Part shown: positions 17,069 through 25,838 of the stretch, piece by piece
Numbering within the stretch: position 1 is the first letter of the stretch
Layout of the letters: each line of letters begins with the position of its first letter
NCBI GenBank assembly: GCA_964583985.1
Contig: CAZOYD010000029.1
Location: 1-39,773, forward strand
DNA from: an uncultured archaeon
GTDB lineage: Archaea > Asgardarchaeota > Lokiarchaeia > Sigyniarchaeales > SOKP01
DNA length: 39,773 bases
Direction of reading: 5' to 3'
Translations under genes and position numbers: made by a program
The notes under the pieces: model-generated
What the model was told of the DNA's origin: nothing
Databases searched by the model: none
The model's input: the letters and a program-made list of their open reading frames with translations, nothing else

Positions 17069-18115
17069 CTAGTCAGTGATGATCATTTTATCAAGAGTTT
17101 GATCAATCAACAATACTCGATAAAATTCTGAATCTCGATAGGTCACTTTTTCGAGTTTTCCTTGAACCATCACTTTTTCTCCATTTTTAGCTTGTTCACA
17201 AAAACGCCCTCTATATGAATTAATTTGAGTGATAGCGTTGATCTGATTATTAATGCTTGCGTCACTCTCCAAAACTTTAGAGCATTTGATTTTATATGAA
17301 CAGGGAGTAAAAATGGAATCAATTGAATCTACTATTTCAGCTAAAAGAGATATTCGCCCCATATTTTTATATTGATAATCGTAATAAGTCCCTTCCCAAT
17401 CTTTCGGGCTTTTTATATAACGAATGAAAAAGTCTATGCCTTGAAATTTTCCTTGATGAAGTTTTCGTTGTTCGCTTTTTAGAAAGTCCTGAAATAATAT
17501 ATCTGAACCTCCTACCCGCCATTCGTAGTGTTTCTGATATTCATTTAAATTATATTTTCTGATTTGTTTGTTGTTTTTGAATAGATTTTGTAGCTTTTCT
17601 TGAAATTGTAAGCTTGCTTGAGTTCCATATAAAATAAGATCAATATCAGATTTTTTCGTATTCAAACCGATCATTGGAGAACCAGTTATTCCAATTTGGT
17701 TTTCAGGAATGCTTCCAATCTCAATAAATAATTTACACAAATATTTTGATACTTTTTCAATCTTGGTTAAATTATGTTTAGATTTAATGATGTGATAAAA
17801 ATTTCTTGGAGAATATATCATTTTGATATCTTCATTTTTTACTCCTTGAAGGTTCATGTCCATTTCTTGGGAGAAAAATGAATATTGAGGATATTTCTCA
17901 TTAATAATTGAGTATCTTCGTTGAAGATCATAAATTTTAGTGTATTTAAGCCCATCCTTGACACGATCTCCCTCAATATCAGGAATAAATCTTAAAAAAC
18001 AAATTTTTCGATCATTAGGATGATGCAAACCTTTCACATCAAAAAAAAGATGATGTCTCTTGGTTTCTATATAATCACCTTCAATTCCTATTGGAATCTC
18101 CATAAAAATCTCCAT
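17069..18115 (-). CDS. Archaeal predicted nucleotidyltransferase (Pol-beta superfamily) with C-terminal OB-like domain
   Basis: GITGS..IGL....SDIDLILYG (GS..DxD), EGDYIET..FFDVKG..HP, SYRGRFCEQA..GEKV.V.GKLE. Confidence 0.75.
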   Translation of the reverse strand: MEIFMEIPIGIEGDYIETKRHHLFFDVKGLHHPNDRKICFLRFIPDIEGDRVKDGLKYTKIYDLQRRYSIINEKYPQYSFFSQEMDMNLQGVKNEDIKMIYSPRNFYHIIKSKHNLTKIEKVSKYLCKLFIEIGSIPENQIGITGSPMIGLNTKKSDIDLILYGTQASLQFQEKLQNLFKNNKQIRKYNLNEYQKHYEWRVGGSDILFQDFLKSEQRKLHQGKFQGIDFFIRYIKSPKDWEGTYYDYQYKNMGRISLLAEIVDSIDSIFTPCSYKIKCSKVLESDASINNQINAITQINSYRGRFCEQAKNGEKVMVQGKLEKVTYRDSEFYRVLLIDQTLDKMIITD

Positions 18116-18128
18116 AATTCTTTTTAAT

Positions 18129-19232
18129 TCAATATTTAGAAGGCTTTTTGGATTTTATTTTTGTTTTTGGTATACTCTTTGCCCTCATCAGAGATTTTTC
18201 AAACTCTTTTTTTTCACTCAGAAAGCGAGATTTATCACTTTCAAGTTTTTCTCTTTCCCTTTTTATATCATTCTTTTCATCATGTATTTTAGATTTTTCT
18301 CTGGCTAAGGATCTTTCGGTATCTCTAATTTCAGCCGCAACTTTTGCTCTTTCGTTTTCCAAGCTTTTTATCTCTGAATTTAACCGTTTAATTTTATCTT
18401 CTAGATTATTTACCTTATTCTGGTTGGAATAATATTGATTTTCGTATTTTGGAATCTTATTTTCAAGTTCTTTAATTTTTGAGTCAAAATACGTCTTTTT
18501 TCTTTCTAACGACTTTATTTCTTCTTTAGATTTGTTTTTCTCTTTGTCAAGTGACTCCCGTTTTTTTTGAACATCTCGATTTAAAGATTTTAATTCAGTT
18601 TTTTTGATACGATCTTTTTCTCTTTCTTCGAGTAACTTCTTTTTTTCATCTTTAATCCTGTTTTTTTCATCGGTAATATTTCTATTCAGATCGTTAATTT
18701 CTTTATTAAGATTATCTCTAATTCTTGTTAAATCCTTTATTTCATTCCTCAAATCCATTAATTTATCTTCTAAATCATTGATTGTTCTTTCAATAGCGCT
18801 TTCTCTTCTTTCCATACCAGGAATTTTAGTTTTGATTTGTTGCAAGCGCTCTTCTGCTTTTTCTTTTTCTTTCCTTAAGGCTTGTTTTTCTTGATCAATA
18901 TTATCTTTAATTCTTTCCAAATTTTGTTTGTATTGTTTCCCTTTTTCAATCTCGTTATTGATGTTTTCCAAATCCTTTTTTAGTTTTTCATTTTGTTCAA
19001 TGAGATTTCTAAGCTCGATTTCTTTTTCTTTTCTCTTCTTTTCAATACTTTCAATATTGTCGTCATAATCTTGAAATTTTTTTACAACCTTTTCCCATTC
19101 CTCTTTTTCTCTGTTTAATTTAATTCTCTCTTCTTTTATTTTCCTAAGTAATTTTGGGTCCGACACTACCCCTAGGTCCTCATCCGGAGTTTTTTCTCGA
19201 ATTTGTTGTTTGGGAATAGGTTTTTCATCCAT
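18129..19232 (-). CDS. Long Lys/Glu-rich coiled-coil protein
   Basis: Near-continuous heptad pattern over about 320 aa with no evident globular domain. Confidence 0.8.
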   Translation of the reverse strand: MDEKPIPKQQIREKTPDEDLGVVSDPKLLRKIKEERIKLNREKEEWEKVVKKFQDYDDNIESIEKKRKEKEIELRNLIEQNEKLKKDLENINNEIEKGKQYKQNLERIKDNIDQEKQALRKEKEKAEERLQQIKTKIPGMERRESAIERTINDLEDKLMDLRNEIKDLTRIRDNLNKEINDLNRNITDEKNRIKDEKKKLLEEREKDRIKKTELKSLNRDVQKKRESLDKEKNKSKEEIKSLERKKTYFDSKIKELENKIPKYENQYYSNQNKVNNLEDKIKRLNSEIKSLENERAKVAAEIRDTERSLAREKSKIHDEKNDIKREREKLESDKSRFLSEKKEFEKSLMRAKSIPKTKIKSKKPSKY

Positions 19233-19362
19233 TTTTCTTGCACAGTTTTAATATATATATTATTGTTATATAAAGACAAATTCTAAAGTGTTTGCTATTT
19301 ATATATTATAAATTCCATTAATTTCTTAAAGTGTAATATTCTAAGAATTTGGTGTTTAAAAA

Positions 19363-19800
19363 ATGGATTTTGATGACGAATTTGACGAGGAATTTGATGA
19401 AGAATTTGATGAGGATTTCGATGAAGATCTAGACGAAGATTTAAAGGATGATTCAGAAAATTTATCTGAGCCTGCTACTAGCTCAATCACGGATGAAGAA
19501 CCTAAATCTAAAGTTCCAAATCAAATTCCAGAAGGAGAAAAAATATCAATCTTTTTTATGTCAACAATAGGTCCTGGAGAGAAAAAACAAAAATTATTGG
19601 TAAATACAGGAAATACTGTAGGAGCAATCAAAGAGACAGTAGCTAATTTATTTGGATTAGATCCAAATGATTTTCATTTATCTACTGGCGGAATCACTCT
19701 GGATGAACCGTCTACACTGAGCGATTATGGTATTAGGGATGGAGATGACATTTTATTGATTCCAGCAAGTACTGCAGGACTATATTTAATAAAATCATAA
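19363..19800 (+). CDS. Ubiquitin-like protein A (pro-form) with long acidic N-terminal repeats; C-terminus IPASTAG|LYLIKS
   Basis: Beta-grasp pattern TVGAIKETVANLFGLDP..FHLSTGGITLDEPSTLSDYGIRDGDDILLIP; paralogue of 21617..21952. Confidence 0.85.
   Translation: MDFDDEFDEEFDEEFDEDFDEDLDEDLKDDSENLSEPATSSITDEEPKSKVPNQIPEGEKISIFFMSTIGPGEKKQKLLVNTGNTVGAIKETVANLFGLDPNDFHLSTGGITLDEPSTLSDYGIRDGDDILLIPASTAGLYLIKS
19369..19440 (+). repeat. In-frame 12-nt tandem repeat (6 copies) encoding (F/L)D(D/E)(E/D)
   Basis: tttgatgacgaa tttgacgaggaa tttgatgaagaa tttgatgaggat ttcgatgaagat ctagacgaagat. Confidence 0.85.
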
Positions 19801-19801
19801 T

Positions 19802-20599
19802 TTATTTTCTTTCTTTTCTTGATGGGATAATAGCTATTTCATCGTCATCATCAATATCATATTGTTTTACTTGAGATTTTTCATCTAATAAGATACCTCC
19901 AGATGATAGTACGAAATCCTCTTGAAGATAATCGAACAATATTCCAATTCTGTCTTTAAGCTCTGCTATGAAATCGGATTTTTCGATAATTATAATTTTT
20001 GTTTTCTGCCCCGGTTCAAGAAGAGATCTAATGTAAACCCTTAGTTTGTGTTCTAATCCAAAAGGAGTTAATGAAGGAGAATATATGATTTGTTCGTCAG
20101 ATTCCTGTTGAGATTTAAGCATGTTATCAATTAAATCTTTTCTTTCAGAAGCTTCAAAATAGAGCATTTCTCTAAGAAAAAAGATCTTATCCATTTTTGA
20201 TAATTTTAAATTATCTATCTTATATAATTCTTCTTTATCAAATTCCGTGAAAATAAACTCATCGATTCTCGAAATTTCTTCATAAGATTCATCAGAATTG
20301 GCGTAGTGATCAATTAAAGGCATCGCTTCAAAATAGTCCTCAATAAGCTCTGGGGGTATATTATCATTTATTTTCTTTTTTAGAGAGTATTTATCTTTTG
20401 TAGAATTAATCTCCGTTACATTGGTATTAGACTGAATAATAGTATATATTGTACTAGATGATAAAACAGATACGCTAGATATTGCTATAATCATAAAAAT
20501 AGAAAAATTTTCAATTTTTAAAAGGAAGAAAAACAAGTATATAAATGCAAAAACAACATAAAAAGCAATAGTCCAATATACTCGAGTATTTTTCTTCAT
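19802..20599 (-). CDS. Membrane-anchored protein (2 N-terminal TM) with a C-terminal Ubl domain lacking a terminal Gly
   Basis: Two hydrophobic helices, then EPGQK..IAELKDRIGILF..FVLSSGGILLDEKSQVKQYDIDDDDEIAIIPSRKERK, homologous to the flanking Ubls. Confidence 0.8.
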   Translation of the reverse strand: MKKNTRVYWTIAFYVVFAFIYLFFFLLKIENFSIFMIIAISSVSVLSSSTIYTIIQSNTNVTEINSTKDKYSLKKKINDNIPPELIEDYFEAMPLIDHYANSDESYEEISRIDEFIFTEFDKEELYKIDNLKLSKMDKIFFLREMLYFEASERKDLIDNMLKSQQESDEQIIYSPSLTPFGLEHKLRVYIRSLLEPGQKTKIIIIEKSDFIAELKDRIGILFDYLQEDFVLSSGGILLDEKSQVKQYDIDDDDEIAIIPSRKERK

Positions 20600-20677
20600 A
20601 TTTTTAAGATAGTATATTTTCTAATTTTCTAATATATAATTCAAAATATAAATTCAATTGGAATAACTGTGAATTTT

Positions 20678-21355
20678 TCATCTTTTTTCACCAAAAATTA
20701 ACTCTTTTAGTTCATAATACTTTTTATGATCCAATTTGAATAGCAGTCTTTTTTTATTGCTTTCAAATTGAACTAATTGTAAATCATGTAAAATTTCTAA
20801 ATATTTTTTAACAGTATTATAATTTTTCTTGAGATTATTTGAGATATCTGATACTTTTAGGGATTCAGTTTGATCTATCATAAATTCAATTATTTTTTGT
20901 ACAATCTCTTGTTTTAAATAAAAATATGACTCATCTAATTCTGGATTTGAATCATAGATGAAAACAATCCTTTGATTTTCAATTTCTCTTGATCGCGTGA
21001 ATTGGAACTTTTCTAAACAGGATAGGTGCCAGAGAGCTTGATTGCTTCCAATGTTAATAGCTCTCATAATTTCATTGATATTTGATGGATTTTTTTTAAT
21101 ATAATTAAAAATTTCATTTCTAATGGGATGCTCAATTATATTATTTTTCATTAATTTAGTTCCAGGAATTAACCGTCGTTTTTTGATAAGATCTTTAATA
21201 GTCTTTTCAATTTTATTTTTATTTAAATAAGGTTTAGCTCTTGTCCTATTATTAATATAAACAACTATGTCTTCAATTGAAAAGAATGGTTTCTTCTTTA
21301 AATAATCTTTAATTAAGCCTAAGATAAGAGGCTCAACCTCTTCTGGAGTGCTCAT
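20678..21355 (-). CDS. Winged-HTH transcriptional regulator (tandem ArsR-like wHTH)
   Basis: RNEIFNYIKKNP.NINEI...WHLSCLEKF and VSDISNNLKKNYNTVKKYLEILHDLQLV. Confidence 0.8.
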   Translation of the reverse strand: MSTPEEVEPLILGLIKDYLKKKPFFSIEDIVVYINNRTRAKPYLNKNKIEKTIKDLIKKRRLIPGTKLMKNNIIEHPIRNEIFNYIKKNPSNINEIMRAINIGSNQALWHLSCLEKFQFTRSREIENQRIVFIYDSNPELDESYFYLKQEIVQKIIEFMIDQTESLKVSDISNNLKKNYNTVKKYLEILHDLQLVQFESNKKRLLFKLDHKKYYELKELIFGEKR

Positions 21356-21616
21356 AAGTATATTTCTGAATAACGTCCAAATTTCTTAATTCGATTGATA
21401 TATCTTCTCTCTAAATGATAATTTTATAGAATATATATTAATAGAATGTCATGGAATTTATAAGTATAATATAAAAGCTTACGAAAGCAATAATTTATGC
21501 TAAATTAACTAATTATGGAAACTTCAAAATCATTCCAATTGGTTTTATAATACCATTTTAGCATGTTATTATTAAGTTTTAAAAACCTTTAAAAAAAAAT
21601 ATATGGAGTGATTTAA

Positions 21617-21952
21617 ATGAGCTTTGATAATAACGATTTTGATGAGGAATTAGAACCAGTTAAGTCTAAAACCCCGTCAAGTAAAGTACCCTCGACAGGA
21701 AAAAAGGTGACTCTATATTTCATGTCTACCATTGGTCCTGGTGAAAAGAAAGAGAAACTTACAGTAAATGACGCTAATCAAATAGGTGATATCAAACAAA
21801 CATTAGGAAATCTATTTGGGCTTAATCCAGATGAATTCCATCTCTCTTCAGGTGGAAGAACAATGGATGAAAGTAATCAATTAAAAGATTATAATGTAAG
21901 TGATGGCGACGATATTCTATTAATCCCTGCGAGTACAGCGGGATACTTTTAA
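21617..21952 (+). CDS. Ubiquitin-like protein B (pro-form); C-terminus IPASTAG|YF
   Basis: Ubl core IGDIKQTLGNLFGLNP..FHLSSGGRTMDESNQLKDYNVSDGDDILLIP; SD GGAGTGA; first gene of the E1-E2-JAMM-RING run. Confidence 0.88.
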   Translation: MSFDNNDFDEELEPVKSKTPSSKVPSTGKKVTLYFMSTIGPGEKKEKLTVNDANQIGDIKQTLGNLFGLNPDEFHLSSGGRTMDESNQLKDYNVSDGDDILLIPASTAGYF

Positions 21953-22030: not shown

Positions 22031-23266
22031 ATGGTGATATTAGTGAAAAAAGAATCAGATTTTTTTGCAAAAGGAATGTCGGCAGAAGAAAGAGATTTAT
22101 ATGATCGTCAATTTCGCCTTGAAGGATGGTCTCAAAAATTAATTAAAAACTCTAGAGTACTAATTGCTGGAGTAGGAGGATTAGGGTGTGAAATTGCTAA
22201 GAACTTAGCCATGTTAGGTGTTGGTCATATAGATCTTGTTGATTTAGATATAATCGAACATTCGAACTTTAACCGACAGCTTCTTTTTATTGGGGCAAAA
22301 TTAGGAGAACCTAAAGCTATCGCAGCCGCCAAAAAATTACTTGAAATTAATCCTAACATCACCGTAAAAGGATATCATACATCCTTAGAAAGATTAAATC
22401 CCTCCCTATATCATGAAGCAGATGTCATTATTGGGGGTCTTGATTCAATGAATGCGCGATTAAACTTGAACACTCAATGTGTACGATTTAGAAAACCTTT
22501 AGTAGATGGAGGGGTATCTGGTTATCATGGTCATATTTATACCATCTTTCCTTATCGAAATGCTTGCTATGAATGTAATCCACTACCGGTATTAGAGAAT
22601 GATGAAATGGCAGCTTGTACTGTAGTTGGGATCCCTCGAAAAAGGATTCATTGCTTATTTAAAGGAGATATGGCTTTTAAAGAGAAATTTGATAGGGATC
22701 CTAGTCCCAAAGATATAAATGATATAAAATATATTCAGAAAGTCACAAATGAATTAGTAAATCAACATAATTTCCATCCCGAATTTACTGAAGATGATAT
22801 CGTAAAAATTATTGATCGTCATGATCCTGGTATCATTACAATTAATTCAGTTATTTCTGCATTAGAATCTCATGAGGCAGTGAAGATAATTCACTGGAAT
22901 AATGGACATAAAGGATTAGGAGAACCTATTACAAATTATGTTATTTTTAATGCAATGACAATGAAATTTTATCATATTGAAAAGAGGAGAAATCCAGATT
23001 GTGCTCAATGTGGAAAAAATGTAAGGAGAGTTGTAATAAATATAAGGCCTAGCTCCCCTTGTGCAAATATAATAAAAACATTAGAGAAAAATGGATTTCA
23101 ACTAGATCCTGAGCTAGAACCTTTGATAACCTTACTAGATTTCAATGATATCATAATAGTAGATCTAGAAGAGAGTGTTAAAGAAAATAATCTTAGAAAT
23201 TATGAATTTTTAACGATTGCGGGATTTAAAGGGGGCGAAGTTTATGTTACCCTCAAATTAAAATAA
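22031..23266 (+). CDS. E1 ubiquitin-like activating enzyme (ThiF domain plus catalytic-Cys domain, UBA3/UBA2-like); start may be GTG 22043
   Basis: YDRQ, GVGGLGCE, DLDIIEHSNFNRQLLF, LDSMNAR, PLVDGG, CYEC, AACTVVGIPR..IHC (catalytic Cys), CAQC, and a C-terminal probable ubiquitin-fold domain. Confidence 0.92.
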   Translation: MVILVKKESDFFAKGMSAEERDLYDRQFRLEGWSQKLIKNSRVLIAGVGGLGCEIAKNLAMLGVGHIDLVDLDIIEHSNFNRQLLFIGAKLGEPKAIAAAKKLLEINPNITVKGYHTSLERLNPSLYHEADVIIGGLDSMNARLNLNTQCVRFRKPLVDGGVSGYHGHIYTIFPYRNACYECNPLPVLENDEMAACTVVGIPRKRIHCLFKGDMAFKEKFDRDPSPKDINDIKYIQKVTNELVNQHNFHPEFTEDDIVKIIDRHDPGIITINSVISALESHEAVKIIHWNNGHKGLGEPITNYVIFNAMTMKFYHIEKRRNPDCAQCGKNVRRVVINIRPSSPCANIIKTLEKNGFQLDPELEPLITLLDFNDIIIVDLEESVKENNLRNYEFLTIAGFKGGEVYVTLKLK

Positions 23267-23324
23267 AAAATTATAATAAAAATTAAAAAATATAAAAATT
23301 AAAATAAAATACGGGGTTAAAAAA

Positions 23325-23852
23325 ATGAGTATAAGAAGTAGTCGGGTTTCCCGAGATTTCGCGGGTTTAAAAAAAATGGCACAAAATGGAACTATTGTTC
23401 AATTAAAACCTTTTAATCCAAAAAATAAGAGTATTGATCACTTAGCGATTACAATAAAAGGGCCGAAAGGGACGGCTTATGCAGGAGGTTTATTTAAGTT
23501 GGAAATGAAATTTCCTGCGCAATATCCTGGACAACCACCTTTTGTAAGATTGCATACACCGATATGGCACCCTAATTTTTGGCCAAAACCGAGTGAATAC
23601 AAGGGACAAAGAAATATTTGTTTAGCTTTAGTTGATCCTTCATTAGTTGGCAAAAAAGGAGGATGGAGTCCTTCAAAAACAGCTGTAACCATTGTACAAG
23701 CAATTATTGCCATGTTAAATACTCGAGGAAAATATGTTAATCCGACTGATGTTTTTAATAAAAAAGCAGCAATAGAAATGATGAAAAATCAAAAATTATT
23801 TGAGAAAAAAGTTAAAACTTTGGTAAAGAAATACGCTAACGAAAAGTGGTGA
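23325..23852 (+). CDS. E2 ubiquitin-conjugating enzyme (UBC fold)
   Basis: IKGPKGTAYAGGLFKLEMKFPAQYP..PP, IWHPNF...NICL, WSP. Confidence 0.93.
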   Translation: MSIRSSRVSRDFAGLKKMAQNGTIVQLKPFNPKNKSIDHLAITIKGPKGTAYAGGLFKLEMKFPAQYPGQPPFVRLHTPIWHPNFWPKPSEYKGQRNICLALVDPSLVGKKGGWSPSKTAVTIVQAIIAMLNTRGKYVNPTDVFNKKAAIEMMKNQKLFEKKVKTLVKKYANEKW

Positions 23853-23859
23853 GTCTAAG

Positions 23860-24657
23860 ATGAAGATTGATGACAAAAACAGTGAAACAATTCGGGATAC
23901 GATTAAACAAAAAATAAAGGAAAAAATCAAGAAAGAAATACTTGAAGAAGTATATACCGAGCTACAACTCGAAGAATTACAAGAAGAAATAACTGCTGAA
24001 ATTTTTGATGCAAAACCTTTAGGGCATTCAAAAGATATAAAAACATACTTAGAACCTATTCCAATGGAACCTGTAATAACTATAGCTAAAAATGAAAGAA
24101 TTGAAGCAAAAATACAAATAACTGTAAAAGCTATCCTTAAAATTTCAAGCCATTCGTTGAAATATGCGAATTCTAAAATTAGGAAAGAGAACTGGGTTGA
24201 GGTAATAGGATTACTCTCTGGTAGATATGACAATGGAATACTTTATTTAGAAGATGCGTATCCAATGGGTCATGGTACTGCAGTTTATGCTGAAATTAAA
24301 GATTATAATAACTTTACAAGAGCATATGAAGACATTGTAAAAAATAAGCAATTTATCTGTGGATGGTATCATTCGCATCCCTCATATGGATGTTTCATGT
24401 CTAAAGAAGACTTAGGAACTCAAAGGCGATATCAGAAATTTTGGGATAAATCAGTTGCCCTTGTAATTGATCCATATCAAATTAACGGAAAATCTATCGG
24501 CTTTGAGATCTATCGTGCAAATTTTAATACAAAAAAATGGTTTTCCGTGCCATTTGATATCAAAGGAAGTTTAGATGTAAGGATGCTACCCGAAATATTA
24601 GAATTCATGAATCCTATTATTGAAGGTAAACCTGCCTACTTAGAATATGATGAGTGA
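23860..24657 (+). CDS. JAB1/MPN (JAMM) metalloprotease, CSN5/Rpn11-like
   Basis: EVIGLLSG, GWYHSHPSYGCFMSKED (HxH-x10-D), TQ..YQ, ALVIDP. Confidence 0.93.
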   Translation: MKIDDKNSETIRDTIKQKIKEKIKKEILEEVYTELQLEELQEEITAEIFDAKPLGHSKDIKTYLEPIPMEPVITIAKNERIEAKIQITVKAILKISSHSLKYANSKIRKENWVEVIGLLSGRYDNGILYLEDAYPMGHGTAVYAEIKDYNNFTRAYEDIVKNKQFICGWYHSHPSYGCFMSKEDLGTQRRYQKFWDKSVALVIDPYQINGKSIGFEIYRANFNTKKWFSVPFDIKGSLDVRMLPEILEFMNPIIEGKPAYLEYDE

Positions 24658-24686
24658 AGAAAAATTTTAATTGGTGAGATTAAACG

Positions 24687-25838
24687 ATGGTAAAAAAAAA
24701 ACAGAAAGCGTTAGTAATTATTCTCATTGTTTTTTCTGTAATAGGTATGATTCATGGTTTAATTTCAGCTTCATTAAATAATTTTTTAACTTGGCTATTA
24801 ATTGGATTGTGGTTAATATTTACAATAAAAATTTATAATAATATCAAACGACACCGTGAGTTTAATTCCCCCCATAATACGGCTTTTTTCGTGATCATTC
24901 CTTTATTAATAGGAGTATTTTATTCTATCTGGGGATCATATACAGGAATTTTAGGCGAAAACTTGATATTAGGTTCTAATTTCTATTTTAGTTTATGGAG
25001 TCTCATATTTGGTTTGCCTTTTGTAATTTATGGTTCACACTCAATCTATCGATGTTTTAAAAAATATAATGTAATCTATTTTGGAACCAAGTCAGTGAAA
25101 GCGAAGGGGTTAGGCTATTTTTTGTCAATTTCAGTTATTATTGCCATCATTTCTTATTGGATTGCTTTTTATAATGTGAGTGAGTTTTATTCACCATTAA
25201 CACCACTCCGTTTTTCATTGGATCTTAACCTTTTGCTCCTACTCATTATTACTATTTTCAACCTAATCATTTTTGGCTTTATAAGTAACCGTTCCAATAT
25301 ACCAGAATTAACACGTGATTATATCGCACAACGTACTAGGCGAATTAATAACTTAACTACCCCATCAACACAAAATAACAGTACTCGTACAAGAACTCAA
25401 ACAATTCAAACACCAACAAGAACAACCAGAACAACACGCACAACCACCACAAGACCCCGATCTATAAATGCACCTACATCTAGTTCTCGATCAACGAAAA
25501 CGCAAACAACTAAATCAGTTCGATCTCAAAGAACAATAAATGCCCCTAAAATTCGGGATTTTAGCAAATTTAAACCCAAAGGTTCGTTAATCTCAGAAGA
25601 CGACTTCAAGTGTATATTCTGCTTTAAACTACCTAAACTTCCAGAGGATAAAAATAAAGGAATCGTAATCTGTCCAAACTGCAGATATCCTGCTCATGCT
25701 GACGAATTTATAGCTTGGATGAAAACTTCAAATCTTTGTTCTCGTTGCAGTGCTCCCATTCCGTCAGGTTTTAGACGAAATCCTCGGATTATCACTACAA
25801 AAAATTATATTGCTATCTACAGACATTTTCTAAAATAA
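24687..25838 (+). CDS. Polytopic membrane protein (about 6 TM) with Thr/Arg-rich linker and C-terminal RING-like domain; putative membrane E3 ligase
   Basis: Six hydrophobic segments; CIFC...CPNC....HADE...W.....CSRC; last gene of the Ubl-E1-E2-JAMM operon. Confidence 0.8.
   Translation: MVKKKQKALVIILIVFSVIGMIHGLISASLNNFLTWLLIGLWLIFTIKIYNNIKRHREFNSPHNTAFFVIIPLLIGVFYSIWGSYTGILGENLILGSNFYFSLWSLIFGLPFVIYGSHSIYRCFKKYNVIYFGTKSVKAKGLGYFLSISVIIAIISYWIAFYNVSEFYSPLTPLRFSLDLNLLLLLIITIFNLIIFGFISNRSNIPELTRDYIAQRTRRINNLTTPSTQNNSTRTRTQTIQTPTRTTRTTRTTTTRPRSINAPTSSSRSTKTQTTKSVRSQRTINAPKIRDFSKFKPKGSLISEDDFKCIFCFKLPKLPEDKNKGIVICPNCRYPAHADEFIAWMKTSNLCSRCSAPIPSGFRRNPRIITTKNYIAIYRHFLK

Follow-up and report, generated by a model that had tools for sequence, protein, structure and literature searches.

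A conserved acidic repeat arm distinguishes two ubiquitin-like modifier paralogues encoded beside one E1-E2-RING gene set in a Lokiarchaeial lineage

Introduction

Archaeal gene clusters encoding ubiquitin together with E1, E2, RING and Rpn11 proteins have been described as an operon in Caldiarchaeum subterraneum and from Asgard archaea (PMC5654768, PMC6043591, PMC9192718). The locus reported here, which is found in the genome of an uncultured Lokiarchaeial archaeon, likewise combines a ubiquitin-fold modifier with genes for E1-like, E2-like, JAB/Rpn11-type and RING proteins, and its modifier also has a tail to be trimmed; judged by gene content, it belongs to this known class of archaeal eukaryote-type ubiquitylation clusters. 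It differs from the described clusters in four respects: the modifier ends with Ala-Gly instead of Gly-Gly; it carries a 58-residue N-terminal extension, which consists of an acidic repeat and a linker with a K-x-P motif; two free paralogues (Ubl A and Ubl B) and a membrane-anchored Ubl accompany a single set of enzymes; and the RING protein is polytopic. Neither an acidic arm nor a pair of paralogues was found mentioned in the literature searched on the archaeal clusters (the three publications cited above).

In design, the closest analogue is SUMO, the N-termini of which are disordered, bear acidic residues and regulate interactions (10.1101/2024.01.04.574143). SUMO1 and SUMO2/3 are, like Ubl A and Ubl B, modifier paralogues with disordered acidic N-terminal tails and with a tail lysine at a conserved motif; the SUMO paralogues share one E1/E2, as Ubl A and Ubl B probably do. 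In SUMO2/3 the lysine of the tail motif builds chains. The original prediction had compared the two Ubls with SUMO1 versus SUMO2/3, and as an analogy of design this is fair. However, the arm of Ubl A consists of tandem repeats and has three times the length of SUMO tails; its conserved tail motif is K-x-P and not the hydrophobic-K-x-E consensus of SUMO; it ends with Ala-Gly; and by profile it does not belong to the SUMO family, the score with the SUMO-type profile (Rad60-SLD, PF11976) being 14.3 bits, below the cut-off of 23.8.

Several Ubl tags with different meanings are handled by shared enzymes in eukaryotes, where disordered tails help to set specificity. A disordered polyacidic segment for electrostatic docking in a ubiquitin cascade, as could be the case here, is known from the E2 enzyme Cdc34/UBE2R, whose acidic tail docks on a basic surface of its cullin-RING ligase. 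In that case the E2 bears the acidic segment and the E3 the basic surface, whereas in the present locus the modifier bears the acidic arm, and both E2 and E3 are basic.

The stretch of DNA that was analysed (the window) comprises 39,773 nucleotides, positions 1 to 39,773 of contig CAZOYD010000029.1 (GenBank assembly GCA_964583985.1). Its relevant features, with the basis of each assignment in brackets, are:

18129-19232, minus strand: coiled-coil protein, 367 aa, divergent neighbour of Ubl A, with K-T-P-type motifs at both termini (adjoins the Ubl in two-Ubl and single-Ubl loci)
19281-19320, plus strand: conserved upstream elements, namely TTCTAAAGTGTTTG, a TATA-like box (19297-19311) and TTCCATTA (19313-19320) (conserved upstream of A orthologues)
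19351-19354, plus strand: GGTG ribosome-binding site, 8 nt 5' of the ATG (comparison of A genes)
19363-19800, plus strand: Ubl A gene, 145 aa, with acidic arm, linker, beta-grasp core, C-terminal tail and stop (ORF; PF00240; database relatives)
19369-19440, plus strand: six (F/L)-D-(D/E)-(E/D) units, aa 3-26 (Tandem Repeats Finder, period 12; codons; orthologue consensus)
19441-19452, plus strand: degenerate seventh unit, LKDD (direct sequence reading)
19453-19536, plus strand: fast-evolving linker, aa 31-58 (dN/dS 0.80 to the nearest relative, 0.35 pooled)
19504-19518, plus strand: KSKVP, aa 48-52, local form of the K-x-P motif (K50 and P52 invariant or nearly so)
19537-19779, plus strand: ubiquitin-fold core, ending with Ala138-Gly139 (AlphaFold2 pLDDT about 90 over aa 60-134; Foldseek; dN/dS 0.10)
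19780-19797, plus strand: six-residue tail LYLIKS after Gly139 (tails in 12 of 63 A orthologues)
19802-21355, minus strand: membrane-anchored Ubl (19802-20599) and wHTH regulator (20678-21355), situated between A and B (Pfam)
21617-21952, plus strand: Ubl B, 111 aa, with short arm, directly 5' of E1 (BLASTP; Pfam; B-position genes of 108-111 aa)
22031-25838, plus strand: E1 (22031-23266), E2 (23325-23852), JAB protease (23860-24657) and membrane RING protein (24687-25838) (Pfam ThiF, UQ_con and JAB; synteny in about 65 loci)

Results and Discussion

Fold and C-terminus of Ubl A

The reading frame of Ubl A begins with ATG and extends upstream by just one codon. The Pfam ubiquitin profile PF00240 matched aa 75-132 with 30.6 bits (cut-off 25.4), and ubiquitin chains were matched when the PDB was searched with a profile of 117 relatives; NCBIfam profiles yielded nothing useful for Ubl A. 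An AlphaFold2 model, built from 117 aligned relatives, contains the predicted elements of a beta-grasp fold (strands 60-67, 74-81, 104-108 and 129-134; helix 86-97). The top Foldseek matches, with a probability of 1.00, were the ubiquitin of Caldiarchaeum subterraneum and ubiquitin itself, with an rmsd of 1.4-1.6 Å and TM scores of 0.79-0.90 on the target. The PDB entries 8HM1-3 ("putative ubiquitin") are homologues from Bacteroides and were set aside as not relevant.

A C-terminal Gly-Gly was absent from all 128 family members examined, in which an invariant Ala-Gly is present instead. Most A orthologues (51 of 63) stop exactly at this Gly; the tails of the others are mutually unrelated and vary in length and sequence even among near relatives. 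The LYLIKS tail of Ubl A must come off before activation; the tail of Ubl B has two residues.

Membership in an anti-phage Ubl system (of the Bil or CBASS Cap2/Cap3 type) was considered and rejected. PADLOC found no match for Ubl A, Ubl B or the E2, and for the E1 only generic partial matches to the ThiF part, with 18 bits for JAB; such a role is unsupported also because the locus is syntenic in many species and not island-like.

The acidic arm

The arm consists of the units FDDE, FDEE, FDEE, FDED, FDED and LDED, that is, five Phe-led units followed by a Leu-led one, and the net charge of aa 1-27 amounts to -19. Tandem Repeats Finder reported a period of 12 with 5.0 copies (19365-19424, 81% matches) and, in a second call, a period of 24 with 3.2 copies (19365-19442). 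The units differ in synonymous codons (TTT/TTC, GAT/GAC, GAA/GAG, CTA/TTA). The original prediction had regarded the arm as an expansion of the DFDEEL of Ubl B; its six units, the 12-nt repeat and the synonymous variation were all found, but an expansion in this genome was not borne out, since single-Ubl relatives already possess three to five units. No other protein of the genome bears the arm, as at least three consecutive units of this kind occurred in none of the other six-frame ORFs (10,101 ORFs of 60 aa or more; genome size 3.8 Mb), and thus it is not a widely shared motif. In the AlphaFold2 model, aa 1-55 have pLDDT values of 45-57, with no helix or other secondary structure and with no folded or bound state; the N-terminal arm is predicted to be disordered.

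Among the 63 A orthologues, the consensus unit is F/L-D-E-E/D with a period of four residues. A total of 358 units was evaluated: Phe or Leu occupies position 1, Asp accounts for 82% of the residues at position 2 and Glu for 74% of those at position 3, and the hydrophobic residues are spaced four apart in 309 cases. Phe-led units come first in the A orthologues and Leu-led units after them. This periodicity, together with the residue preferences, argues for more than bulk charge. The number of units varies in steps of whole 12-nt units; the comparison of copy numbers, which had been proposed with the original prediction, gave 6, 6, 4, 5 and 5 units in near relatives and three to seven across the A orthologues. 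In one relative (L074:10010 region) a run of unknown bases is situated inside the arm of the A orthologue, with duplicated arm sequence on both sides. The repeat appears to disturb the assembly there, and published unit counts may be misleading in some genomes.

Pooled dN/dS ratios from 57 gapless pairs of 41 species, which are not independent of each other, were 0.14 (arm), 0.35 (linker) and 0.10 (core); in comparison with the nearest relative, the ratio of the linker was 0.80. In comparison with the nearest relative whose arm is equally long, six of 26 arm codons differ; three of these differences are silent, two exchange Asp and Glu, and one changes Phe to Leu. The reading frame is intact in all 63 A orthologues. 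Judged by these substitution patterns, the arm is under purifying selection and constrained much as the folded core. Selection at the protein level had been suspected from the synonymous variation, and both the ratio of 0.14 and the position-specific consensus of the units agree with it.

Enzymes, neighbours and the question of one cascade

The modifier and the ThiF, UQ_con and JAB genes lie together in a stretch of 6 kb. The polytopic RING protein had no Pfam match and was assigned by reading of its motif. The genome, which is rated 100% complete, contains a single UQ_con E2, at the Ubl locus, and five ThiF-type genes, one of them at this locus. One cascade for two modifiers is the simplest reading, since Ubl A and Ubl B have the same last 14 core residues and there is a single E2; we infer it as plausible.

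The genes for the membrane Ubl and the wHTH protein were found in the two-Ubl type of locus only. Beside the coiled-coil gene, a 348-aa protein of nucleotidyltransferase fold is encoded (17069-18115, minus strand), with weak Pfam matches to poly(A)-polymerase-like palm domains; in two-Ubl loci this gene is always a companion of the coiled-coil gene, next to which it was not found in the single-Ubl loci that were fetched. A fourth small Ubl of 87 aa, ending with Gly-Gly-Phe, is encoded on another contig (G000 contig C3, 76577-76840, minus strand, identical with L004:1498-1761, minus strand), 8 kb from a ThiF-type gene of 251 aa. These two genes look like a separate Gly-Gly tag system.

Distribution and history of the two paralogues

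A search with Ubl A of a collection of 5.8 billion proteins yielded 823 significant relatives. A repeat arm of the same kind is present on all of the 120 best of these 823, and the source labels of the best relatives denote Loki-type and other Asgard proteins. Some labels of relatives (Hod-, Hermod-, Odin- and Thor-archaeota, even Bacillota) are probably imprecise. When species-representative genomes were scanned, 78 loci were retrieved, about 65 of which have the order nucleotidyltransferase (-), coiled coil (-), Ubl A (+), membrane Ubl (-), wHTH (-), Ubl B (+), E1, E2, JAB and RING. Two contigs with Asgard loci (L005, L039) are filed under bacterial names (Bacillota, Nanopelagicaceae) and were probably mis-binned.

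BLASTP aligned Ubl A and Ubl B with 53% identity over 126 columns (E 1e-43). In the ungapped core ending with Gly139, 54 of 84 residues are identical, which is close to the approximately 54 of 82 obtained earlier by manual counting; the final 14 core residues, through Ala-Gly, do not differ at all. Genes for both Ubls are complete in 52 species-level genomes, including the source genome; as had been proposed, A and B are true paralogues, and they have been retained together. Genes in the A position encode three to seven strict units, with a median of 23 acidic residues ahead of the fold. Those in the B position encode 108-111 aa in nearly all loci, with a mini-head of one or two units (zero to two by the strict count), and single-type Ubls have one or two strict units per protein.

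Members of the Ubl family were detected in 96 of 250 sampled genomes of the phylum. Genomes with three matches, one each for A, B and the membrane Ubl, belonged mostly to the genus of the source genome (18 of 20 matched genomes) and to one sister genus of the same family (18 of 18); among the sampled genomes, the A/B pair thus dates back to the level of genera, not to that of the phylum. Eight loci possess a single Ubl directly 5' of E1, usually with the coiled-coil gene still adjacent, and include those of Lokiarchaeum ossiferum, Promethearchaeum and Hel-, Sif- and Sigyn-type genomes. In single-Ubl genera of the same family, about three to five units make up the arm, and in more distant families a head of Met-Ser-Glu plus Phe/Leu and acidic residues is followed by one to three S-K-T-P motifs. 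A short acidic head was likely the ancestral state, and, because the arms of single-Ubl relatives are intermediate, A was probably lengthened after the duplication and B shortened. The long arm is, as the orthologues indicate, a conserved trait of the whole A group and not a local expansion.

At eight of the ten core positions which discriminate best between A and B, single-type Ubls carry the residue of A, and so the core of B is the more derived one. The mean core distance is 0.196 for A and 0.139 for B, and it is larger for A in 86% of the species pairs. A quick maximum-likelihood tree of the 84-column core placed A apart from B with weak support. The discriminating positions, mapped by secondary-structure position only, lie mostly on strands 1 and 2 and helix 1 (61-63, 76, 79, 82, 83, 87, 91, 93, 94); at 76 and 82, Ubl B has gained acidic residues. 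The pair arose by duplication inside one Lokiarchaeial family; A kept most of the ancestral core residues, and B, besides the shortening of its head, changed residues on strands 1 and 2 and helix 1.

Other rearrangements of the family were noticed. In four loci of other Asgard families (L085, L086, L090, L098) two tandem Ubl genes are situated directly 5' of E1, and the modifier was thus duplicated more than once. A locus of the sister genus (L096) has A and two copies of B, with an E2 fragment between the latter. Near cascade genes, larger proteins occur which end in a family Ubl domain at Ala-Gly (L045:4365, L094:11367, L095:9204 and 10365; L088:7075, L089:3422); they are of two kinds. The first, of about 300 aa, has a zinc-ribbon-like Cys-x2-Cys part at its N-terminus, and the second, of about 590 aa, contains a P-loop (GSGKT) part.

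Promoters

The genes for Ubl A and the coiled-coil protein are divergent. Their common promoter region, as had been proposed, is a spacer of 130 bp with two opposed TATA-like boxes and the conserved upstream elements listed above. An SD-like site of the GGTG type precedes 52 of 62 A genes versus nine of 57 B genes. Ubl B has a conserved promoter of its own (approximately 21440-21500), which is unlike that of A; an element ATTCCA(T/A)T is common to both promoters and might be a candidate operator for the wHTH protein encoded between A and B.

Basic partners and the K-x-P motif

Net charges were surveyed in 2,712 ORFs of at least 150 aa, for which the median was -0.3 per 100 residues and the 5-95% range was -5.0 to +4.7. 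Ubl A, with -19.3 per 100 residues, is below all of them. The E2 (+12.6 per 100 residues, 99.7th percentile), the RING protein (+9.7, 99.2nd percentile) and the coiled-coil protein (+5.2, 95.9th percentile; net charge +19) are at the basic end, and the extremes of all four proteins are kept across loci. The basic partners which had been suggested for the arm are therefore real outliers in charge. They do not single out the long arm, because arm length does not covary with the charge of E2 or RING, both of which are equally basic in single-Ubl loci with short arms; the charges thus fit a general electrostatic match between modifier and enzymes and not the long arm specifically. The acidity of the arm is correlated with the number of motif copies at the C-terminus of the coiled-coil protein (Spearman rho 0.55), but largely through one clade, and so this value is not independent evidence.

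The K-x-P motif of the linker, in which x is usually Thr, is present in all 63 A, all 57 B and all eight single-type Ubls. Its distance to strand 1 is 13 residues in 55 of 63 A and eight residues in 56 of 57 B sequences. The usual form in Ubl linkers is (V/I)-K-S-K-T-P. The motif hydrophobic-(K/R)-x-K-T-P, situated at aa 15-20 in Ubl B, is present also in 69 of 70 coiled-coil orthologues, where it is confined to the first 45 and the last 25-45 residues, the N-terminal copy being followed by an acidic patch. Other families, and the cultured lineages of Lokiarchaeum and Promethearchaeum, likewise have coiled-coil neighbours with the motif. The E1, E2, JAB, RING, wHTH and nucleotidyltransferase proteins of the same loci had zero or one occurrence. 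No genome-wide enrichment of [ST]KTP was detected (27 observed versus 21 expected); the significance of the motif lies only in its being conserved in Ubls and coiled-coil proteins. Thr-Pro as a phosphorylation site was considered and rejected; many orthologues have V, I, A or S in place of Thr, whereas Lys and Pro do not vary.

Possible functions of the arm

Taken on balance, we regard it as somewhat probable that both Ubls share their activation and that the arm is a docking handle for basic parts of the cascade. A single set of neighbouring enzymes, E1, E2 and RING, would serve for the activation and conjugation of both Ubl A and Ubl B, and the JAB protease would trim both. The arm would be a multivalent handle, polyanionic and aromatic, which could bind basic components of the system, namely the E2, the linker of the RING protein and the Lys-rich termini of the coiled-coil neighbour. 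Proteins modified with A, or A itself as an acceptor, would thereby acquire properties absent from B. The invariant lysine of K-x-P, which is situated between the arm and the fold, could serve as an acceptor or for docking. Against docking would speak that the charge of E2 and RING does not track the length of the arm, and that the AlphaFold2 model shows no bound state of the arm. Docking on E2, RING or coiled coil is ranked first, a SUMO-like control in cis second and a pure effect of charge third.

Control in cis would mean that the arm transiently folds back on basic residues of strand 2 and helix 1 (K74, K75, K77, K90) and masks a surface for partners until it is displaced. The precedent is SUMO, with disordered N-termini whose acidic residues inhibit binding to the groove between strand 2 and helix (10.1101/2024.01.04.574143). 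The four lysines are invariant in the core of Ubl A, the positions discriminating A from B are concentrated on strands 1-2 and helix 1, and the short-armed B has acquired acidic residues at 76 and 82, all of which would suit a masked surface. On the other hand, the core of Ubl A is itself acidic (net -6), and the Pfam model of the SUMO type remained below its cut-off; we consider this explanation unlikely.

That the arm itself is the effector appears still less likely. Attachment of A would then add about 23 negative charges and alter the solubility of the target or free it from nucleic acid, membrane or basic partners, while B would be a plain tag. The charge of Ubl A, below that of all 2,712 surveyed ORFs, the predicted disorder of the arm and the conservation of charge despite drift in unit number are compatible with this, but the strict period-4 hydrophobic residues, the preference for Asp as the second residue (82%) and the placement of Phe-led before Leu-led units would be left unexplained.

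It is quite improbable that Ubl A is never conjugated and acts as a free ubiquitin-fold regulator or decoy, with the arm binding E2 or RING non-covalently and tuning the conjugation of B. Its own promoter, its location outside the enzyme operon and the faster evolution of its core in comparison with B could be so explained; an end that is invariant up to Ala-Gly in 63 A orthologues, 51 of which stop at Gly, would however be needless in a protein which is never activated. Finally, a functionless low-complexity sequence made by slippage, or a decaying duplicate gene, is disfavoured and hardly credible, although unit number differs among close relatives and the repeat breaks at least one assembly (L074), in view of a frame kept in 63 of 63 orthologues, dN/dS values of 0.14 (arm) and 0.10 (core), position-specific residue preferences and a conserved promoter and ribosome-binding site.

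Docking of the arm could perhaps be part of a two-part device, an extension which is speculative and rather doubtful: the arm would dock the very basic E2, with the adjacent K-x-P lysine as acceptor; A would build chains, or be capped, by way of this tail; and the coiled-coil protein, having the same motif beside an acidic patch at both termini, would be a dedicated substrate. This would amount to a consensus-directed modification of the SUMO kind, read by the E2 and with specialised paralogues, that existed already in Asgard archaea.

Conclusions

An Asgard lineage has retained, across two genera, two free tags together with one enzyme set which they would appear to share, and the main distinction between the tags is a disordered arm under selection. 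The common K-x-P motif points to the coiled-coil neighbour as a concrete candidate partner. As the system is small, with about ten genes, short proteins and one E2, its reconstitution is realistic. If both Ubls are conjugated, the divergence of modifier paralogues and control by means of a tail would have arisen in archaea independently of, or before, eukaryotes.
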